From Gemmatimonadales bacterium (lineage in GTDB: Bacteria; Gemmatimonadota; Gemmatimonadetes; Gemmatimonadales; GWC2-71-9): a DNA stretch of 24,885 nucleotides. Under the pieces are notes generated by a model. The model did no database searches. It was not told the origin of the DNA and saw only the letters and a list, made by a program, of their open reading frames with translations. Location of the stretch: positions 1 through 24,885 of the forward strand of contig JBJMPB010000125.1 of assembly GCA_045803455.1 (NCBI GenBank), read 5' to 3'. Of this stretch, positions 3,241 through 12,364 are shown one piece after another; position 1 is the first letter of the stretch, and each line of letters opens with the position of its first letter. The position numbers and the translations under genes are program-made.

Positions 3241-4266
3241 ATGCGCATTCTGGTTATCGGCGGGACCAATTTTATCGGGCCCCATGTCGTAACCCAGCTG
3301 CACCGGCAAGGCCACGAGGTCACGGTCTATCACCGTGGGGTGCACGAGCCCGACCTTCCCTCCGCCGTGCGCCACATCCACAGCTCCAGAGCAGCCATCC
3401 CGATTCTGCATTTCCCCTCTGTACTGAGCGAGCCTCGTCCCGACGTAGTGCTGCACATGTTCCCGGTGGGAGCGGAGGATACCCGCGCCGCCCTCGCAAG
3501 ATTCACGGGCATCGCGCAGCGAATGGTGGCCGTGAGCAGCGGAGACGTGTATCGAGCCTACGGCAGACTGCTGAACATCGAGCCGGGGCCTCCGGAGCCG
3601 ATGCCGCTGCAGGAAGACGCGCCGCTCCGCGAGACTCACTTTCCGTATCGCGAGGCTGCGGCCGGCCCGATGGATTGGACGTACCACTACGACAAGATTC
3701 TCGCGGAACGGGCGTTGTTGGAGAGCCGCCTGCCTGCCACCGTCCTGCGACTGCCTGCAGTCTATGGCCCGGGCGATCCGCATCATCGGCTTCGGCCGTA
3801 TGTCAGGAGGATGCAGGATCTGAGGCCGGTGATCCTGATCGATGCCTTACAGGCCCGATGGCGCTGGACCCACGGGTATGTAGAGGACATAGCCCGGGCG
3901 ATCACAGCGGCCGTGGTGGATCCGCGAGCAACGGAGAAGGTTTACAACCTGGGGGAAGCGTCAACACCCACCATGGCCGAGCGGATTGATCAGATCGGGC
4001 GATTGATGGACTGGCGGGGGCAGCTCGTATCGTTGAGCACAGAGCGGTTGCCCCGGCATCTACAGACTCCGTTCTACGCGCGGCAGGACTTGGTGATGGA
4101 CAGCCGGAGAATTCGAGTCGAGCTGGATTACACAGAGGTTGTGAGCGACGAAGAGGCCCTCAGGCGTACCATCGAATATGAGCATCGGAGCGAAGTCGTT
4201 CCGGGCGACCCCGGCGCTCAGGAGTATGCGGCGGAAGACCAGGCGGTTCAGCGAGGCGACACGTAG
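3241..4266 (+). CDS. NAD-dependent epimerase/dehydratase family protein (extended/atypical SDR)
   Basis: N-terminal Rossmann motif ILVIGGTNFIG, VSSGDVY, YxxxK (YHYDK), LRLPAVYGP, HGYVED, VYNLG; purine-rich AGGAAA upstream of the ATG. Confidence 0.85.
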   Translation: MRILVIGGTNFIGPHVVTQLHRQGHEVTVYHRGVHEPDLPSAVRHIHSSRAAIPILHFPSVLSEPRPDVVLHMFPVGAEDTRAALARFTGIAQRMVAVSSGDVYRAYGRLLNIEPGPPEPMPLQEDAPLRETHFPYREAAAGPMDWTYHYDKILAERALLESRLPATVLRLPAVYGPGDPHHRLRPYVRRMQDLRPVILIDALQARWRWTHGYVEDIARAITAAVVDPRATEKVYNLGEASTPTMAERIDQIGRLMDWRGQLVSLSTERLPRHLQTPFYARQDLVMDSRRIRVELDYTEVVSDEEALRRTIEYEHRSEVVPGDPGAQEYAAEDQAVQRGDT

Positions 4267-5726
4267 GTCTCGAAGAAGCCCGCGCCTGAATCGCTCACGG
4301 TTTCCCCCAGTACTCTCCCCCGCAGGTTGAAGTGCCCCCGCATCTGGAGGAAGGCTCGCCGAAAACCCTCGGCATTGCTGGGCGTGGCCAGCGCGTCTTC
4401 CACCTCCACGGCCAGGCGGAGGGAATCCTGGTCCCGCGTTGCCACCAACTCGAAGCGGCTCGGCGCAGTGAACCCGGGGCGACCCCGAGCCGGACGGGAT
4501 CCAGTGTAATGGATGGTGTTGAAGCGCAGCACCTGCTTGACCCCGAGCGAGTCCTCCAAAGTGAGAAAAAACGGAGAGCGCACCGCGGATGCTTCGCTCT
4601 GGTTCCGCTCCGGTCCATATACCCCGCCATATAGCACGGCCAGGCGTTTTCCCTGCCCCGCTCCCCACTCCCAGGTGACGTCACGCCAGACACCCCAGTT
4701 GTGATCATGATAGGCAGGAACCTGATGAAATTTCCGGCAGCGCCCAGCCACGCAGATAGAGCCGGAAGCGTGAGCAACCAGCCCGGGGACGACGTAGCCG
4801 GAGACGAACTCGTCACTCCGCAGCTCGACCGGCGGGAAATAGCGGTTGGACGCGGGCTGCAGGATGACATCGATTCGTACCGTCCCGGCGGATCCCGACG
4901 CGCCGCCGATCAGATGGTACACGCCGTCGCGCTGCGTCACCGAGCTTCCGCCTACCATCAAGTCTGCCCGGGTGGTGTCGAGCTGTACCCGCTGCGACGG
5001 CTCCCGGAGCAGAAAGCGCTGGTACTCCCCATCGGCTTGCCGGTGAGTCACCAGCAGCTGGCCACCCCAGCGGCCCGCTGCTGCCGGGTTGTGCTGGTCC
5101 GGAGGGATCTCGCCACCCACCAGGTACGTGATGTACCACCACTCGGTTTCCGAAGGGACAATGTTGAAGTAGTGCCACTCGCCCCAGGTGGAGTCGGCGA
5201 GGGGTGGAATGTGGAAGCGATCGAGCTCGTCGTAGAGCTGCTGGCTCGAGGGTGCGAGGTAAGCCGAATCAGCAGGCAGGTCTTTCCATGAACCGGCAAG
5301 GAGGTTCAATCCCGACCCAACGCTCGCGGCCCGGCTCGGAATTTCGCCTCCCGCTCTGACGGGGAGCACGCGATTACCTCTTTGGAGATAGAGCAGCTTG
5401 CCTTCAACCGTCGGGGAAACGGTCCGGACCAGGTCCTGGTGACGCACTCCGCCGAACACCTGGCGGACGAGGAAGCGGGCCCGGTCAACCCCAAAGAACA
5501 TGCTGCCGATTCCACCGGTTCTCATGGCTTCCACATCGATCCCCTGAGGCAGCACCGTGACCTCCCCTCCCCCGACCAGAGACACATCGCGTGATTGGTC
5601 CAGCATGGCCTGACCCACGGAGAGGAGGACAATCATAACGCCCACTCCGAGCGAGAAACCCAGGAGCAGGAAGAGGGAACGGAGCTTCCGGACCAGCAAA
5701 TGCCGGAAAGCCAGTATGGCTATCAC
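4248..5726 (-). CDS. Fusion of a MacB/LolCE-type permease N-terminal fragment (TM1 plus half of the periplasmic domain) to an AttH/CrtC-like (lipocalin-like tandem beta-barrel) domain
   Basis: Residues 1-45 (LAFRHLLVRKLRSLFLLLGFSLGVGVMIVLLSVG) are a typical type VII ABC permease amphipathic helix plus TM1. Similarity to the neighbouring permease continues to LLAGSW (residues 142-147). No further TM segment follows. The rest carries EWHYF (5166-5180), YHDHNWG (4692-4712) and WEWG, resembling the EWWY / DHxW / WDW motifs of AttH, CrtC and tocopherol cyclase. GTG start overlaps the ATPase stop (GTGA). Confidence 0.7.
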   Translation of the reverse strand: MIAILAFRHLLVRKLRSLFLLLGFSLGVGVMIVLLSVGQAMLDQSRDVSLVGGGEVTVLPQGIDVEAMRTGGIGSMFFGVDRARFLVRQVFGGVRHQDLVRTVSPTVEGKLLYLQRGNRVLPVRAGGEIPSRAASVGSGLNLLAGSWKDLPADSAYLAPSSQQLYDELDRFHIPPLADSTWGEWHYFNIVPSETEWWYITYLVGGEIPPDQHNPAAAGRWGGQLLVTHRQADGEYQRFLLREPSQRVQLDTTRADLMVGGSSVTQRDGVYHLIGGASGSAGTVRIDVILQPASNRYFPPVELRSDEFVSGYVVPGLVAHASGSICVAGRCRKFHQVPAYHDHNWGVWRDVTWEWGAGQGKRLAVLYGGVYGPERNQSEASAVRSPFFLTLEDSLGVKQVLRFNTIHYTGSRPARGRPGFTAPSRFELVATRDQDSLRLAVEVEDALATPSNAEGFRRAFLQMRGHFNLRGRVLGETVSDSGAGFFETYVSPR

Positions 5727-6448
5727 GCGGTAGAAGCGGGGAGCCCGGGAACGGCGGACGACTCCGCGCCCTCGGGGATGACGATGTGGCCGTCCAACAT
5801 GTGAATTATCCGATCGGCCTGCTCTGCCAGCCGGTCGTCGTGGGTGACCACCACCAGCGTCGTTCCATCCTGATTCAGCCGGCGGAATAGATCGAGGATC
5901 TCGTGGCCGGTGGCTGCGTCCAGCTCGCCGGTGGGCTCATCGGCCAGGAGAAGCGCCGGCCGGTTGGCCAGGGCGCGAGCTATGGCCACTCGCTGCATCT
6001 CTCCGCCTGAGAGCTGCGTGGCCCGGTGCCGAGCCCGGTGGTCCAGCCCTACATAGCCCAGCAACTCGAGGGCTCGAGCGCGCCGGTGATCCCGGGGCAC
6101 TCCGGCTTCCGCCATGGGAAGCTCCACGTTCTCTTGCGCTGTTAGCACCGGAAGCAGGTGAAATCGCTGGAAGATGAAGCCCAGCCGAGTAAGCCGAAGG
6201 CGGGTGAGCTCGCGATCGGAGAGTGATTCCAGAACCGTTCCCAGGATCTCCACCGTGCCCGAGGTCGGTGAATCGATTCCGCCGATGAGTTGCAGCAGCG
6301 TGGACTTGCCGCTGCCGGAGGGACCAACCACTGCTACGTACTCACCGGCGCCAATCTCCAGTGACACCCCTCGCAAGGCATGCACGGCTTCGCCGTACAT
6401 CGGGTAATCCTTCCGGAGGTCGCGCGCGACCAGCACCGGCCGGCTCAT
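5723..6448 (-). CDS. ABC transporter ATP-binding protein, LolD/MacB family
   Basis: Walker [11 protein letters not shown]-loop FIFQRFHLL, signature LSGGEMQR, Walker B/D-loop [12 protein letters not shown]-loop VTHD. ATG 6448 overlaps the upstream stop (ATGA); the longer ORF-track start at 6499 is less likely. Confidence 0.95.
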
Positions 6449-7638
6449 GCCGCCTCGGCCCGAAGCACCGCGGCGATGGCTGTCCGCGAGGCGAGCCACG
6501 CCGGATACAGTGCAGACAGAGAACCGGTCAGCAACAGGACCAGCGCCGCTCTGAAAAGGCTCTCCCGCCGGGGCACGAAGAAGGAGAACGCAGCGGGGAG
6601 GCCGGGAAAGCTGGTCAGGATACTGTCGAGGTAACGGGCGGTGACCAAACCGAGCACGATACCCAGAAGGGATCCGATGGCAGTGAGCGATACACCCTGC
6701 AGCAGCACCTCGCGTATCACCGTAGCACGGCTGATACCGATAGCTCGCAGCGTGGCGATCTCCCCCAGCCGCTCGTTGACCGTGATGGTAAGCAGGGTCG
6801 CGATCAGCAGCACCGTCACGATAAGACTCATGCTGCCGAGGATGTAGGAGAGCTGCCGAAAGTAGACCAGACGCTGCTTGAACTCTCGGACGAGGTCGGC
6901 CACGCTGTTCACTTCAAGCTGAGGGAACCGCTCACGCAGAGTTTTGGCCACGGCGGGAGCGGCAGTGTCCTCAGTGGCCCTGACCATCAGCAGGGAGGCT
7001 TGATCCCCCACTCTCTTCCCCGCCAGCGACTGCATCACCGGCAGCAGCGTGCCGACCGACGGCTGGTCCCGGTAGTCGTACACCCAGCGCACCAGACCCC
7101 TAACCCCCGCCGTCCGGCCCACCGCGGCGGTGACGACCTGCGGATCCAGGCGGCCCACCAGGGTGACACTATCTCCGACCTTTGCCTGAAGCACTCGCGC
7201 CGCCGGCAGGCTGAGCAGTACGCCGGTGCTGTCGCGGGGACTCAGGTCTCCTCCGGCGATAACGGTGTAGAGGGCCTGCGCCTCGGGCTGGATCCCGTAG
7301 CCAAACAGAGTGATGAGGCTGTCTCTGCGCCGGCCGTACAATGAGGCTCCCAAGACCGCTCCCGCCGCGGCAATGCCCGGTGTATGCCGGATCGAGGTAA
7401 CCAGCTGGGTGGCGCCGGACAGGGTGGCGTCGGTATCAAACGGCAGCGTTCCCTTGGGGGTCAGCCGGATCTGATATCCTCGGGCCAGAAGCAGCTCGGC
7501 AAATGACTTCTCGATTCCACCGCTCAGCATCACCATATCCAGCAGCATGGCTGCCGAGACCGCGATCCCTATGATCGAGAGGCCGGTCCGCAGTCGATGT
7601 CGCCCCAGGCTTTTGAGACTCCAGCCCAGCCCTGTCAC
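6445..7638 (-). CDS. ABC transporter permease, MacB/LolCE/FtsX type (complete, 4 TM)
   Basis: TM1 (LRTGLSIIGIAVSAAMLL), large periplasmic domain with VGDSVTL, TM2-4 with the ER..EIATLRAIG coupling motif, C-terminal YPAWLAS. GTG 7638 overlaps the upstream stop (GTGA). Confidence 0.92.
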   Translation of the reverse strand: MTGLGWSLKSLGRHRLRTGLSIIGIAVSAAMLLDMVMLSGGIEKSFAELLLARGYQIRLTPKGTLPFDTDATLSGATQLVTSIRHTPGIAAAGAVLGASLYGRRRDSLITLFGYGIQPEAQALYTVIAGGDLSPRDSTGVLLSLPAARVLQAKVGDSVTLVGRLDPQVVTAAVGRTAGVRGLVRWVYDYRDQPSVGTLLPVMQSLAGKRVGDQASLLMVRATEDTAAPAVAKTLRERFPQLEVNSVADLVREFKQRLVYFRQLSYILGSMSLIVTVLLIATLLTITVNERLGEIATLRAIGISRATVIREVLLQGVSLTAIGSLLGIVLGLVTARYLDSILTSFPGLPAAFSFFVPRRESLFRAALVLLLTGSLSALYPAWLASRTAIAAVLRAEAA

Positions 7639-8471
7639 CCGCGCCCCCACAGCACAAGGGGACGAGTCTGGACCAGTCTCCAGGCAGCGAGTGCACCAGC
7701 CACCGCTCCGAGCCCGAGCGACAGCACGACACTGAACCAGACGATGTCAGGCGTGATAATGGAGAAGGTCAGGACCGTATCGAAGAACCGGCGATAGTAG
7801 GCGTTGGTGGCCGCACCAGCCAGGTACGCCAATCCGGTTCCGAGCAGGCAGCCCAGAGCCGCCAGCAGAATGGCTTCCAGCAGAAGGGCGCCGAATATGG
7901 TGCGGCGCCGCACGCCCACAAATCGCATGACGGCGGCATCCAGCCGGCGTTCCTCCACCTTGAGGAGCATGATACAGAGGACGAACACCGTGCTGGCCAC
8001 GATGGTGATCACCGCAATCGCCCGGTGAAAGCGGCTGACCACTCGGAAGGTCTGCGAGGATTCCGCGGCAATGCTGGCCGACGGGAAGGCCCGGAACCCG
8101 TAGGCGCTCCGGTTTAGTACCTCGCTGGCTGAATCTGCAGAAATACCGGGCCTGAGACCGATACTTAGACGATCCACCCGGTCTGGGGACCCCAGGAGGG
8201 CCGCCAGGTCGGGAAGGTGCATCCGGAGATGGCGCTCGCGTTTGGCGATCTCAGCCGGATCCGCTCTGGGCTCGTAAATGGCCGAGATCTTCATCAGGCT
8301 ACCGGGCCTGTCCGGCCGGGGACCCAGTCGGACGCTGTCGCCCACCGAGAGCCCTAGCTCCTCGGCCAATTGACGCTCGACCGCGACCCCGCCCACTTGT
8401 GCCGCGGCCGGCCCGGTCACGACCGGCAGCAGGAACAGCAAGGCGCCCAAGTGTCGGGCCAGAGTAGTCAT
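7635..8471 (-). CDS. N-terminally truncated MacB/FtsX-type permease with a signal peptide (C-terminal half of periplasmic domain plus TM2-TM4)
   Basis: Signal-peptide-like MTTLARHLGALLFLLPVVTGPAAA-Q, then directly GVAVERQLAEELGLSVGDSVRL (mid-periplasmic MacB motif), then three TM segments with VEERRLDAAVMRFVG. 278 aa against 397 aa for the intact neighbour. Confidence 0.85.
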   Translation of the reverse strand: MTTLARHLGALLFLLPVVTGPAAAQVGGVAVERQLAEELGLSVGDSVRLGPRPDRPGSLMKISAIYEPRADPAEIAKRERHLRMHLPDLAALLGSPDRVDRLSIGLRPGISADSASEVLNRSAYGFRAFPSASIAAESSQTFRVVSRFHRAIAVITIVASTVFVLCIMLLKVEERRLDAAVMRFVGVRRRTIFGALLLEAILLAALGCLLGTGLAYLAGAATNAYYRRFFDTVLTFSIITPDIVWFSVVLSLGLGAVAGALAAWRLVQTRPLVLWGRG

Positions 8472-8526
8472 AAAGGAAACTAGTGCCGCACGGTTCCTTT
8501 CTGGGAATGCCTGGAGCAGAACATCT

Positions 8527-9468
8527 ATGACGGGTCAGAGCCAACCGAGGGTTGCCGTGGTGGGCATGAGCGAGTCCGGCAGGGGCTGGGCGTCGCTGGT
8601 GGCGGGAGCCGGCTGGCCACTGACAATCTACGACCCGGACGCTGCCCTGCTCCATGACGGCGAAGACGATATAGCGACCCGGAAACGGCACTCTCAGGGT
8701 GTCGGCCTGCCGGCCATGCGGGAGCACCGGGACGACTCGGCCCCGGGGCAGCTCCGGCTGGGACGTAGTCTCCTCGATACCGTGAGTAACGCCGACTGGA
8801 TCATCGATACCAGTGGCGGCGACTTGCTCCACCGGCAGCGGCTCCTGGAACAGATCGAGCGCGCGGCACGCATGGCAGCTATCGTGACCTGTGGGGCTCC
8901 CGGTCTTTCGCCGACGGATCTCTGTGCCCGCCTTCGCCGGCCCACTCGGCTTCTCGTGGCCCATGCCCTCGATCCGGTGGAACACGTGCTTGCGGTCGAG
9001 GTGGTGCCCGGCACGCTGACTGACCCAGCGGTGCTGGACGAGCTCAGAAACTGGCTCCGCCAACTGGGACGGGTACCGATCGTCCTGCGGAAGGAAGTGC
9101 CGGGTAACGCCACTGGACGCATTGCAGTCGCGGTATGGAGGGAGTGCATTCGGCTGGTGCTGGACGGCGTGCTGGAGGTGCGGGACGTGGATGTTCTGGT
9201 CTCCTCCGGACTGGCGGCCCGCTGGGCCGCGGCCGGACCGTTCCAGACGGCCTATCTCGAGGCCGGCGAACGGCAGACGGCGCAGCTCAGCGCCTTGTTG
9301 CGGGCTCTGGAAACTCGCTGGGAAGGCGACACCAGCTTCTATTTGCCTCCGGCCGAGCATCAGCACCTGATTCGATTGATCGAGCGGGCTTACGATGGTG
9401 AGGGCGACGTTCTCAAAGGCGCGCGGAATGAACGGCTGGCCGAGTTGAGGAGAATCGTAGGCTACTGA
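8527..9468 (+). CDS. 3-hydroxyacyl-CoA dehydrogenase / L-gulonate 3-dehydrogenase (lambda-crystallin)-like protein with degenerate motifs
   Basis: VAVVGMSESGRGWA...IYDPD, LLVAHALDPVEHVLAVEVVPG, LGRVPIVLRKEVPG and GLAARWAAAGPF follow the family pattern in order; GGAG lies 10 nt upstream of the ATG. Confidence 0.8.
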   Translation: MTGQSQPRVAVVGMSESGRGWASLVAGAGWPLTIYDPDAALLHDGEDDIATRKRHSQGVGLPAMREHRDDSAPGQLRLGRSLLDTVSNADWIIDTSGGDLLHRQRLLEQIERAARMAAIVTCGAPGLSPTDLCARLRRPTRLLVAHALDPVEHVLAVEVVPGTLTDPAVLDELRNWLRQLGRVPIVLRKEVPGNATGRIAVAVWRECIRLVLDGVLEVRDVDVLVSSGLAARWAAAGPFQTAYLEAGERQTAQLSALLRALETRWEGDTSFYLPPAEHQHLIRLIERAYDGEGDVLKGARNERLAELRRIVGY

Positions 9469-10296: not shown

Positions 10297-11655
10297 CTAG
10301 CCCACCCACTGGCGAAAGGTCCCGACCAGCAGCCAGCTATTCAGTCCCATGATGACCCCGGCAACCAGCCAGGCCAGTGCTGCCAATCCACGGCTGTTTA
10401 CGAACTGACCCATTTTCGAACGCTGACTGGTGAAGTACACCAGCGGTACGACGGCGAAGGAGAGCTGCAGGCTGAGAATGACCTGACTCAGAATCAGGAG
10501 CCCGCCGGCGCCACGCTCACCATAGGCCGCGGTGACAATGACTGCAGGGATGATCGCAATGAGCCGGGTGATCAGACGACGGAGCCAAGCCGGCAGCCGG
10601 ATGTTGAGAAAGCCCTCCATGACGATTTGCCCGGCCAGAGTCCCGGTGATCGTCGAATTCTGACCCGAGGCCAGCAGGGCGACGGCGAAGAGGGTGCTGG
10701 CCATTGTGGTGCCCAGCAGCGGCGCCAGCAGCCGGTAGGCATCGCCTATGTCCGCCACCTCCTGATGTCCGGTGTTGTGGAACGTCGCCGCGGCCAGAAT
10801 CAGAATGGCCGCGTTGATGAAGAAAGCGAACAGCAGGGCGACGGTCGAATCCAAAGTGGCGAAACGAATAGCCTCCCGCTTCGACGCGACGTCGGGCAAT
10901 ACCTTGCGGGTCTGCACGATGGACGAGTGCAGGTACAGGTTGTGGGGCATGACCGTGGCGCCCAGAATGCCGATGGCGATGTACAGCATCATCGGATTGG
11001 TCACGATTTGTGAGGTGGGTATCAGGCCTCGGGCGACAAACGAGAGGTCCGGCCGGGCCATGATCAGCTCAGCACCAAAGCAGACACCGATCGTGGCGAC
11101 CAACGTGATCACCAGCGCCTCGAGGTAGCGAAACCCCTTGTGCTGCAGCAACAGAATGAGCAACACGTCGAACGCGGTCAGACACACACCCCATATCAGC
11201 GGAATTCCGAACAACAGGTTCAGGGCGATAGCCGAGCCGATCACCTCCGCCAGATCACAGGCGGCGATGGCGATTTCGCAGAGGACCCACAGCACAAAGC
11301 TGACCGGCCGCGAGTAGTGGTCCCGGCAGGCTTGCGCGAGATCCCGGCCGGTCGCAATGCCGAGCTTCAAGGCGAGAGCCTGAAGGAGAATCGCCATCAG
11401 GTTCGAGAGCAGGATGACGCTCAGCAGGGTATATCCGAACCGCGCTCCACCGGCCAGATCGGTTGCCCAGTTTCCTGGATCCATGTAGCCCACGGCCACC
11501 ATATAGCCCGGCCCGGCAAAGGCGAGCGCCTTGCGCCAGAAGGAAACGCCCTTGGGCACATGGACCGTGTGATAGGACTCGGGCAGGCTCGGTAGTGTGC
11601 GTGGATAGCGCCACGCGCCGAGTTCGCGGACGGGTTCGGACGAGGCAGCGCTCAT
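10297..11655 (-). CDS. mntH: Nramp-family divalent metal (Mn2+) transporter MntH
   Basis: Signature motifs [10 protein letters not shown] (TM1) and MPHNLYLHS (TM6), plus [20 protein letters not shown]; about 11 TM segments. ATG 11655 overlaps the mntR stop (ATGA). Confidence 0.97.
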
Positions 11656-12338
11656 ACGGCCCCCGTGCAGGCGCACTGAAGAACGTGACTGAGCTCGCGA
11701 CCGATGACGTGCCGCTGTCCGCCGACCTCGATGGTGACCAGGTCGTCGAACGGCTGCCGGTCTAGCACCGTAATCCGGACGCCCGGCTTAAGGCCCAATG
11801 AAGCGATGTAGCGCAGCCGCTCGGGCTGATTTTCATGAACTCGATGGATCTCGACGGTGTCACCAACCGGAATATCGGAGAGCGGTGTGCAGGAAAGCTC
11901 GTGGACGAAACCGTCTGCCGAAGGGATGGGGTCGCCGTGAGGATCCACGTCAGGATTCCCCAGGGCGCTGGCCATCCGTTCGACCAGGGTGTCGGAGACC
12001 GCGTGCTCCAAACGCTCGGCCTCATCGTGGACCGTGTCCCAGGAGTAGCCCAGGAACTCCACCAGATAGGCTTCGATCAGGCGGTGCCGGCGAACCATCC
12101 GCAGAGCTGCCCGGCGACCCTCATCGGTCAGCTGGACCCCGCGATAGGGAACGTGCTCCAGCAACCCGTGCTCGGACAGCCGCTTGACCATCCCGGTAAC
12201 CGATGGCGGCGATAGCGCGAGCAGGTGAGCGATCTCGCTGGTAGAAGCGGGACGACCCTCCGGGGACAACTGGTATATGGCCTTCAGATAGTCTTCGACT
12301 GACCGGGTCAAACTGTCGCTAAGGGTAGCGGCACTCAC
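11652..12338 (-). CDS. mntR: DtxR/MntR-family manganese-dependent repressor with C-terminal FeoA (SH3-like) domain
   Basis: VEDYLKAIY, w[42 protein letters not shown], FeoA-like LGLKPG. Asp and Glu at the positions equivalent to DtxR M10 and C102 mark the Mn-sensing members of the family. Confidence 0.92.
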
Positions 12339-12350
12339 ACTGGGCTCCGT

Positions 12351-12364
12351 TTAGGCTTGCCTAA
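12351..12364. promoter_or_regulatory. MntR/SirR-type operator palindrome TTAGGC-TT-GCCTAA
   Basis: Perfect 6-bp inverted arms, 12 nt upstream of the mntR start; matches the TTAGG-N4-CCTAA pattern of DtxR-family (SirR/MntR-type) boxes. Confidence 0.85.

Follow-up and report, generated by a model that had tools for sequence, protein, structure and literature searches.

An AttH/CrtC-like double beta-barrel joined to one piece of a split type VII ABC permease in Gemmatimonadota

Why a transporter subunit should break off halfway and continue as a lipocalin-like barrel is the question raised by one gene, P0001, in a 24,885-nucleotide stretch of DNA (the window; contig JBJMPB010000125.1 of assembly GCA_045803455.1) from a soil member of the Gemmatimonadales. 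P0001 closes a compact operon of four genes, which begins with P0004 and runs on the minus strand from position 8471 down to 4248. Its product starts as a MacB/LolCE-type ATP-binding cassette (ABC) permease, ends as a permease inside the periplasmic domain, and then runs straight on into a barrel of the AttH/CrtC superfamily. We strongly infer that the products of all four genes assemble into a single type VII ABC machine whose barrel lies in the periplasm. The chances that our whole explanation is right, namely a split type VII machine whose periplasmic barrel likely performs acid catalysis, we judge to be about even. The parts of P0001 and of the operon are as follows.

4248..5726, minus strand: P0001, 492 amino acids, made up of the first transmembrane segment (TM1), a MacB/LolCE-type periplasmic half-domain (the N-terminal half) and a double barrel of AttH-like type; its stop codon occupies 4248-4250.
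5589..5687, minus strand: TM1 and stalk helix of P0001, residues 14-46, from hydropathy, a helix at 14-46 in the model, and alignment to TM1 of MacB and P0003.
5250..5588, minus strand: P0001 residues 47-159, the periplasmic core domain as far as the internal break, its first half (Pfam, hhalign).
4251..5249, minus strand: P0001 residues 160-492, AttH/CrtC-superfamily double lipocalin-like beta-barrel (fold and profile matches).
4737..4754, minus strand: Cys325 and Cys330 of P0001 (C-x4-C), read from a 30-sequence alignment.
5723..6499, minus strand: P0002, ABC ATPase of MacB/LolD type, with a likely ATG start at 6448 in a 4-base overlap with the P0003 stop.
6445..7650, minus strand: P0003, 401 amino acids, intact type VII permease with TM1, periplasmic domain and FtsX TM2-4 (Pfam MacB_PCD and FtsX).
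7635..8471, minus strand: P0004, 278 amino acids, predicted signal peptide followed by the remaining half of the periplasmic domain and FtsX TM2-4 (Pfam FtsX).

The permease is truly split and the barrel sits at the break point, as the initial annotation of the locus had proposed; the cut lies inside the periplasmic domain, with the barrel directly after it. By itself P0001 falls short of a complete type VII permease (TM1, periplasmic core and TM2-4); P0001 and P0004 jointly cover the fold. Residues 17-147 of P0001 correspond to positions 1-110 of the 207 in Pfam MacB_PCD, a family also matched by 17 of 30 homologues with a best E of 1.5e-6. When the first 165 residues of the P0001 family were compared as a profile with the family of the intact permease P0003, residues 1-159 aligned to P0003 6-146 (hhalign, 90.6%, E 1e-6), and residues 19-275 of the P0004 family aligned to P0003 134-396 (99.45%, E 5e-22). 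Residues 29-248 of P0004 likewise fall on positions 145-367 of the 411 in the NCBIfam LolCE model TIGR02212, and in an AlphaFold2 model of P0004 (predicted local distance difference test, pLDDT, 79) residues 23-278 superpose on LolE 142-413, LolC 138-399, MacB 390-643 and YbbP 122-371. The first 25 residues of P0004, variable in length, with A-x-A-like ends and low model confidence, bear what appears to be the signature of a signal peptide and not of TM1. From the alignment ranges together with this signal-peptide-like N-terminus, P0001 and P0004 are complementary pieces of one permease, encoded at opposite ends of the operon.

One could instead suppose that P0001 is an independent, membrane-anchored AttH-like protein whose anchor merely resembles TM1, and that P0004 is a short permease on its own. 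The N-terminal Pfam score of P0001 (17.4 bits against a cutoff of 27) leans that way, as does pairwise BLAST of its N-terminus against P0003, which returns no match; BLAST proved too insensitive here, and profile comparison was required. That comparison, extending over TM1 and a further 100 residues, ends where P0004 begins, the P0004 N-terminus resembles a cleavable signal peptide, and the two genes co-occur strictly and in fixed order (about 2900 homologues of P0001 vs about 3000 of P0004), so that we regard independent proteins as very improbable.

P0001 has a GTG start at 5726, in a 4-base overlap with the stop of the upstream ATPase gene P0002. A database copy of the protein, P0005 (462 amino acids), begins 30 residues later and leaves off window positions 5637-5726. 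This start is too far downstream and cuts away most of the TM helix, because residues 1-30 are kept in homologues (R16, G23, G27 and M31 in at least 90%) and the overlap with the ATPase stop also supports GTG 5726. A hydropathy scan finds one TM segment, at residues 14-43, and none further on, in agreement with the earlier description of about 340 residues free of TM segments after the permease fragment (4248-5303, that is, residues 142-492 plus the stop codon). Positive charges precede TM1, and by the positive-inside rule everything downstream of it should be periplasmic. Cys325 and Cys330 are present together or absent together among homologues and probably form a disulphide, consistent with a periplasmic site.

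The same architecture recurs within one phylum. Among 201 sampled Gemmatimonadota genomes, 74 carry the P0001 gene, always as a single full-length copy, including 16 of 16 in the source genus (the 201 include one unpublished genome, G157, on which no claim depends). Gemmatimonas metagenome-assembled genomes are among the carriers (L063, L070, L088). Of 80 loci in species-representative genomes, those with named records all belong to Gemmatimonadota (Gemmatimonadales, Gemmatimonadaceae, Longimicrobium), the exception being one short contig binned as Acidimicrobiales, and ESM Atlas clusters of the same architecture are also from Gemmatimonadota. Gene order from P0004 through P0003 and P0002 to P0001 is kept in 75 of 91 loci, metagenomic relatives at 28-29% identity among them, the remainder being cut by contig ends. 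With more than 2870 P0001 homologues in a set of 5.8 billion proteins, and 339 clusters matched at 50% identity by the barrel domain alone, the architecture is not a product of chance. AttH-like domains also occur in other combinations in the AlphaFold DB and ESM Atlas: fused to an OafA/YrhL-type acyltransferase (725 amino acids), with a CDP-alcohol phosphatidyltransferase and GtrA in Myxococcota (778 amino acids, 118 members), and at the C-terminus of two AlphaFold DB entries of 1118 and 1169 amino acids that might be permease fusions. Other candidates were set aside. P0142 and P0144 (about 700 amino acids) look like ATPase-barrel fusions but are artefacts, wrong-frame translations rich in Arg and Pro; P0141, a partial barrel joined to a beta-lactamase, is probably gene-call read-through; and P0129 and P0168, apparent stand-alone barrels, come from short contigs and have doubtful starts.

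In the machine that we propose, the naturally divided type VII (MacB/LolCE/FtsX-type) permease gets TM1 and its first periplasmic half from P0001, which runs on at the break into the periplasmic double barrel, and its remainder from P0004; the two would assemble with intact P0003 and two copies of P0002 into one heteromeric complex. P0002 is a MacB/LolD-type ATPase, its best NCBIfam matches, in the ATPase part, being MacB (245 bits) and LolD (237 bits). A heterodimeric permease, a LolD-like ATPase and hand-over of an acyl chain to a barrel are all features of LolCDE-LolA, and P0003 and P0004 match LolC/LolE best (NCBIfam, PDB chains). However, the LolA barrel has another fold and that of P0001 is tethered, the TIGR02212 score is 80 bits against a cutoff of 362, and an operon present in 74/201 genomes is not universal. 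Because at least five other FtsX-type permease loci exist in the source genome, the P0001 operon is not the housekeeping Lol system.

What kind of barrel does the broken permease carry? Given a 62-sequence alignment, AlphaFold2 returned a model of P0001 (mean pLDDT 87.4, predicted template modelling score 0.83) in which residues 181-489 are wholly beta strand and form the two orthogonally packed lipocalin-like beta-barrels that characterize the AttH-like fold superfamily. The initial annotation had recognized such a domain from its motifs, and structure comparison upholds it: the top PDB match in Foldseek is AttH NE1406 (2ICH; E 8e-11), followed by kievitone hydratase, the Diels-Alderases CghA, Fsa2 and Phm7, and 25-phosphosteroid lyase. 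Matches among Swiss-Prot models are Svf1 ceramide-binding proteins, CrtC, tocopherol cyclase and Rv0493c, with Svf1 the best (E 8e-14; TM-score 0.69 normalised to the hit; 11-13% identity). AlphaFold DB clusters and the ESM Atlas concur on an AttH-like fold.

At the level of sequence profiles, the barrel is related to AttH proper but lies some way from it. For comparison we used a canonical set of five AttH proteins from other genomes of the phylum (PF07143 plus PF17186, confirmed for one). The barrel profile matched theirs over 203 columns of the second barrel only (hhalign, 87.9%, E 3e-6), placing D341 on the invariant Asp of WMDxEFG, W352/W354 on WDW, and E486 on the C-terminal Glu of canonical AttH; DRFH...EWHYF is, by eye, the counterpart of RDH...EWWY in strand 1, so that the motifs of the AttH family proper (D-x-H...EWWY, Asp, W-x-W, C-terminal Glu) are shared. 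Neither P0001 nor 30 homologues gave a PF07143 or PF17186 match at E <= 0.1 or reached the AttH-family gathering score, and neither family was found in the source genome, which is 84% complete. The two Pfam/NCBIfam matches that P0001 does give are both sub-threshold, MacB_PCD (17-147, E 0.006) and Tocopherol_cycl (PF14249; 318-354, E 0.027). The latter, at 14 bits vs a cutoff of 26.6, spans those residues and not the full length of the model; nowhere else does the barrel resemble a Pfam family, and Tocopherol_cycl is matched in 9 of 30 homologues, with a best E of 3e-5. DA_N, DUF2804 and DUF7065 were each matched by single members among the 30. A PDB sequence search with the P0001 family profile reached only MacB TM1 (E 0.27) and none of the solved AttH structures.

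Motif and gene organization differ as well. Where canonical AttH has WMDxEFG the P0001 family has YHDHNWG and falls below Pfam thresholds, and canonical AttH stands alone as a secreted protein or a lipoprotein, its gene following those of the permease, whereas the P0001 barrel is fused and its gene follows the ATPase. We regard the barrel as a divergent AttH-like subfamily below Pfam thresholds and a new element. The classical arrangement of ATPase, large FtsX-type permease and separate secreted AttH (PF07143 plus PF17186) does occur in other Gemmatimonadota (L109-L112 in G021, G023, G109 and G080; L016:1072-3553). None of the five genomes found with it has the fused system, five being too few for a conclusion, and no mnt genes lie within 10 kb of the classical AttH loci in the phylum.

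Does the barrel act on what it receives? Two motif regions bear on this.

5166..5222, minus strand: stretch from DRFH (169-172) to EWHYF (183-187), which makes the first strand of barrel 1, with invariant H172, W181, E183, W184 and Y186.
4662..4712, minus strand: YHDHNWG (339-345) and WEWG (352-355), acid motif Y-x-D-x-N-W-G, invariant in 62 sequences.

Across the 30-sequence alignment, which reaches down to 27% identity, H172, W181, E183, W184, Y186 and Q461 are invariant, as are Y339, D341, H342, N343, W344, G345, W352, W354 and G355; E486 is also invariant in a 31-sequence barrel-only alignment, and G310, P314 and G322 likewise (alignments down to 25-27% identity). The earlier expectation that the acidic and His motif residues are conserved is borne out, with E183 of EWHYF, D341 and H342 invariant down to 25% identity. 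H340 and H342 are peculiar to the P0001 family, canonical AttH having Met and Lys at those positions. Y339, D341 and N343, in the pattern Y-x-[D/E]-x-N-W-G, would share one face if they lie on a beta strand, and the pattern falls within the stretch that resembles Tocopherol_cycl.

CrtC, kievitone hydratase, the hydroxy-glycerol dialkyl glycerol tetraether synthase Hgs, tocopherol cyclase and 25-phosphosteroid lyase have this fold and a Tyr-x-Asp/Glu acid motif, and enzymes of the fold run proton-initiated chemistry on isoprenoid-type substrates (PMC4717167; bioRxiv 10.1101/2025.10.20.683597). These enzymes are soluble or peripheral and have no ABC partner, whereas the P0001 barrel is tethered to a permease piece. 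In the case of CrtC the catalytic residues are His239, Trp241, Tyr266 and Asp268, and the Tyr-x-Asp pair is essential (PMC4717167). Read from the P0001 family itself, Y339-x-D341 is invariant, and Gly-Tyr-Val-Val-Pro, not His-x-Trp, stands 25-27 residues upstream. Because ten polar residues are invariant, a hydratase/cyclase-type acid motif among them, and because a tethered barrel cannot shuttle, we infer, weakly, that the P0001 barrel is an enzyme. The Tyr339-x-Asp341-x-Asn343 face, with Glu183, His172, His342, Gln461 and Glu486, would start a reaction on the extracted molecule by protonation, candidate types being hydration, cyclisation or elimination at a C=C or a tertiary C-O; such a reaction is proposed because characterised enzymes of this fold do chemistry of this sort.

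The barrel may alternatively be a passive, built-in acceptor that only binds an extracted lipid or lipid-anchored molecule, in the manner of Svf1 or LolA, and hands it on without chemistry to a further partner in the periplasm or the outer membrane. The best Swiss-Prot fold match, yeast Svf1, binds ceramide and, like P0001, is held at the membrane by an N-terminal helix, although it is cytosolic and eukaryotic and works without a transporter (PMC10038888). NE1406 encloses ligand mimics and has been proposed for lipid transport with ABC partners (PMC2954199), and in LolCDE-LolA there is already a case of a barrel taking up what is extracted. A greasy binding pocket would, however, be an odd place for ten polar residues that do not vary down to 25% identity, the tether of TM1 speaks against shuttling here too, and the operon holds no conserved candidate receiver gene. 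We consider passive binding possible but somewhat unlikely.

Several observations weigh against the reading that we prefer, a split machine with a barrel that likely catalyses. The best Swiss-Prot fold match, Svf1, is a ceramide-binding transfer protein, not an enzyme (PMC10038888). The AttH-family models of Pfam and NCBIfam stay below threshold for P0001, and no counterpart of the H239-x-W241 of CrtC was identified in it. Canonical AttH proteins show no variation in the motif residues either, so these may be structural; the calycin Trp of EWWY has a structural role in 2ICH (PMC2954199).

Under the preferred reading, cytoplasmic ATP binding would close the periplasmic domains, as in LolCDE and YbbAP, and the barrel would serve as a built-in periplasmic partner that receives the hydrophobic molecule extracted by the ABC motor. 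YbbAP-TesA of E. coli (PMC12646458) similarly combines a type VII motor with a lipid-modifying partner on the periplasmic domain, and the mechanism proposed is extraction followed by presentation to the partner. TesA, however, has an unrelated SGNH hydrolase fold and is bound non-covalently, and YbbP is a single duplicated permease rather than a heterodimer with a split subunit. Of what unites such pairings of ABC motor and enzyme partner, the P0001 fusion shows only the physical linkage to one permease piece.

A motor of this type need not transport anything. As in FtsEX-EnvC and similar type VII systems (PMC7668044, PMC12646458), ATP-driven movement of the split domain might simply open and close the barrels and so switch their activity. 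The barrel is attached within the moving subdomain, and the ligands in 2ICH are fully enclosed, meaning that opening must be driven (PMC2954199). Yet the operon retains an intact LolC-like permease with a full periplasmic domain, which extraction fits equally well; we think regulation improbable.

When would the cell use such a machine, and on what? The sequence upstream of the operon holds four features.

10297-11676, minus strand: mntH (Nramp), upstream of the operon on the same strand.
11652-12338, minus strand: mntR (DtxR-family regulator), upstream of the operon on the same strand.
12351-12364, minus strand: perfect DtxR-type palindrome TTAGGCAAGCCTAA, before mntR and heading the mnt cluster.
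8527-9468, plus strand: 3-hydroxyacyl-CoA-dehydrogenase-like gene, divergent, between the mnt cluster and the operon.

Among 60 loci with at least 2.5 kb of upstream sequence, 37 have mntH and/or mntR upstream on the same strand. The order of the two genes varies among families while their adjacency is retained, and in eight species-level loci mntR terminates between -4 and +62 bases relative to the P0004 start, overlaps included, as in L072 and L096. Six other loci have variants of the palindrome ahead of the cluster's first gene. The frequent position of the operon behind mntR/mntH suggests that it may be expressed in the manganese-limitation response. Short metatranscriptome contigs (150-250 nt) from four soil runs in four studies differ from the fusion gene at 0-5 positions (for example at 4953-5260 and 5374-5524), and others cover P0004 and mntH; they are compatible with transcription but no proof of it, as RNA libraries can contain DNA. 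Over the stretches 4013-5524, 7852-8436 and 10412-10984, contigs from these four runs match the window with 0 to 17 differences each, and the DNA also turns up in soil metagenomes of several studies. A homologue of the 3-hydroxyacyl-CoA-dehydrogenase-like gene occupies the same position in 16 related loci. The gene between mntR and the operon is otherwise heterogeneous: a YceI-like gene, of a family that we take to be polyisoprenoid-binding, lies there in only two Gemmatimonas-like loci (L070:2251-2820, with a secreted product and a Pfam E of 2e-39, and L089), and was rejected as a general neighbour. An inverted repeat before the P0004 start (8472-8500) was also discarded, its folding being no better than that of shuffled sequence (z 0.40).

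Such neighbours could mean that the system handles metal, with a barrel whose invariant His, Asp and Glu residues bind a metallophore, a tetrapyrrole or a metal ion and a motor that exports or loads it for manganese homeostasis. Export of pyoverdine and protoporphyrin is known for MacB-type pumps and extraction of haem for HrtBA, and siderophores and haem are among the ligands of some lipocalins. The mnt linkage, the mntR stops close by and the DtxR-type palindrome heading the cluster fit this idea, as do H340 and H342, specific to the P0001 family. No such palindrome was found directly before P0004 in the window, however; class-level relatives (L018, L020, L099 and L104) have no mnt neighbours, and synteny inside one phylum can be inherited. 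We also know of no metal in any member of the AttH-like fold, and consider a metal role doubtful.

As to a lipid substrate, the initial annotation had suggested profiling against the carotenoid and hopanoid pathways, and neither link gained support. Of the 201 genomes, 7 have squalene-hopene cyclase, none of them among the 16 of the source genus. The CrtI family (seven best candidates scored per genome) occurs in 48 of 201, in 0/16 of the genus and not in the source genome, and across the phylum it overlaps with the operon in about 20 genomes vs 17.7 expected. Given these distributions, hopanoids and carotenoids are not the general substrate, and for the source genus both links were dropped as unsupported. 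Of the initial proposal, the covalent union of barrel and split transporter stands as an observed fusion, and of the two roles suggested for the barrel, that of an enzyme seems likelier than that of an acceptor.

That the fold exists, that it includes enzymes, and that AttH genes neighbour those of ABC transporters was already known (PMC2954199, PMC4051167). What is new here is the covalent attachment to a permease piece, the split inside the periplasmic domain, the divergent barrel subfamily and the mntR/mntH context; as far as the searched literature shows, a break inside the periplasmic domain is an undescribed route to a type VII permease. Since the att locus and 2ICH, such barrels had been linked to MacB/LolD-type ABC transporters solely by gene neighbourhood, and the fusion is 'Rosetta stone' evidence that the barrel works atop the periplasmic domain. 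It also makes available a complex, stable by nature, for cryo-EM work and for capturing ligands, and the mntR/mntH placement names a condition, manganese limitation, under which to search for the substrate. To our knowledge, no bacterial function is known for AttH-like proteins. A bolder version, which we hold to be a long shot, sees an ATP-driven enzyme machine of the manganese-limitation regulon, its type VII motor pulling a prenylated or unsaturated lipid, such as a prenylquinol, from the inner membrane and feeding it to a tethered periplasmic cyclase or hydratase of tocopherol-cyclase/CrtC type. If this is true, a protective lipid would be made upon failure of the manganese-dependent antioxidant defence, AttH proteins would gain a first function in bacteria, and their long-known association with ABC transporters would be accounted for.

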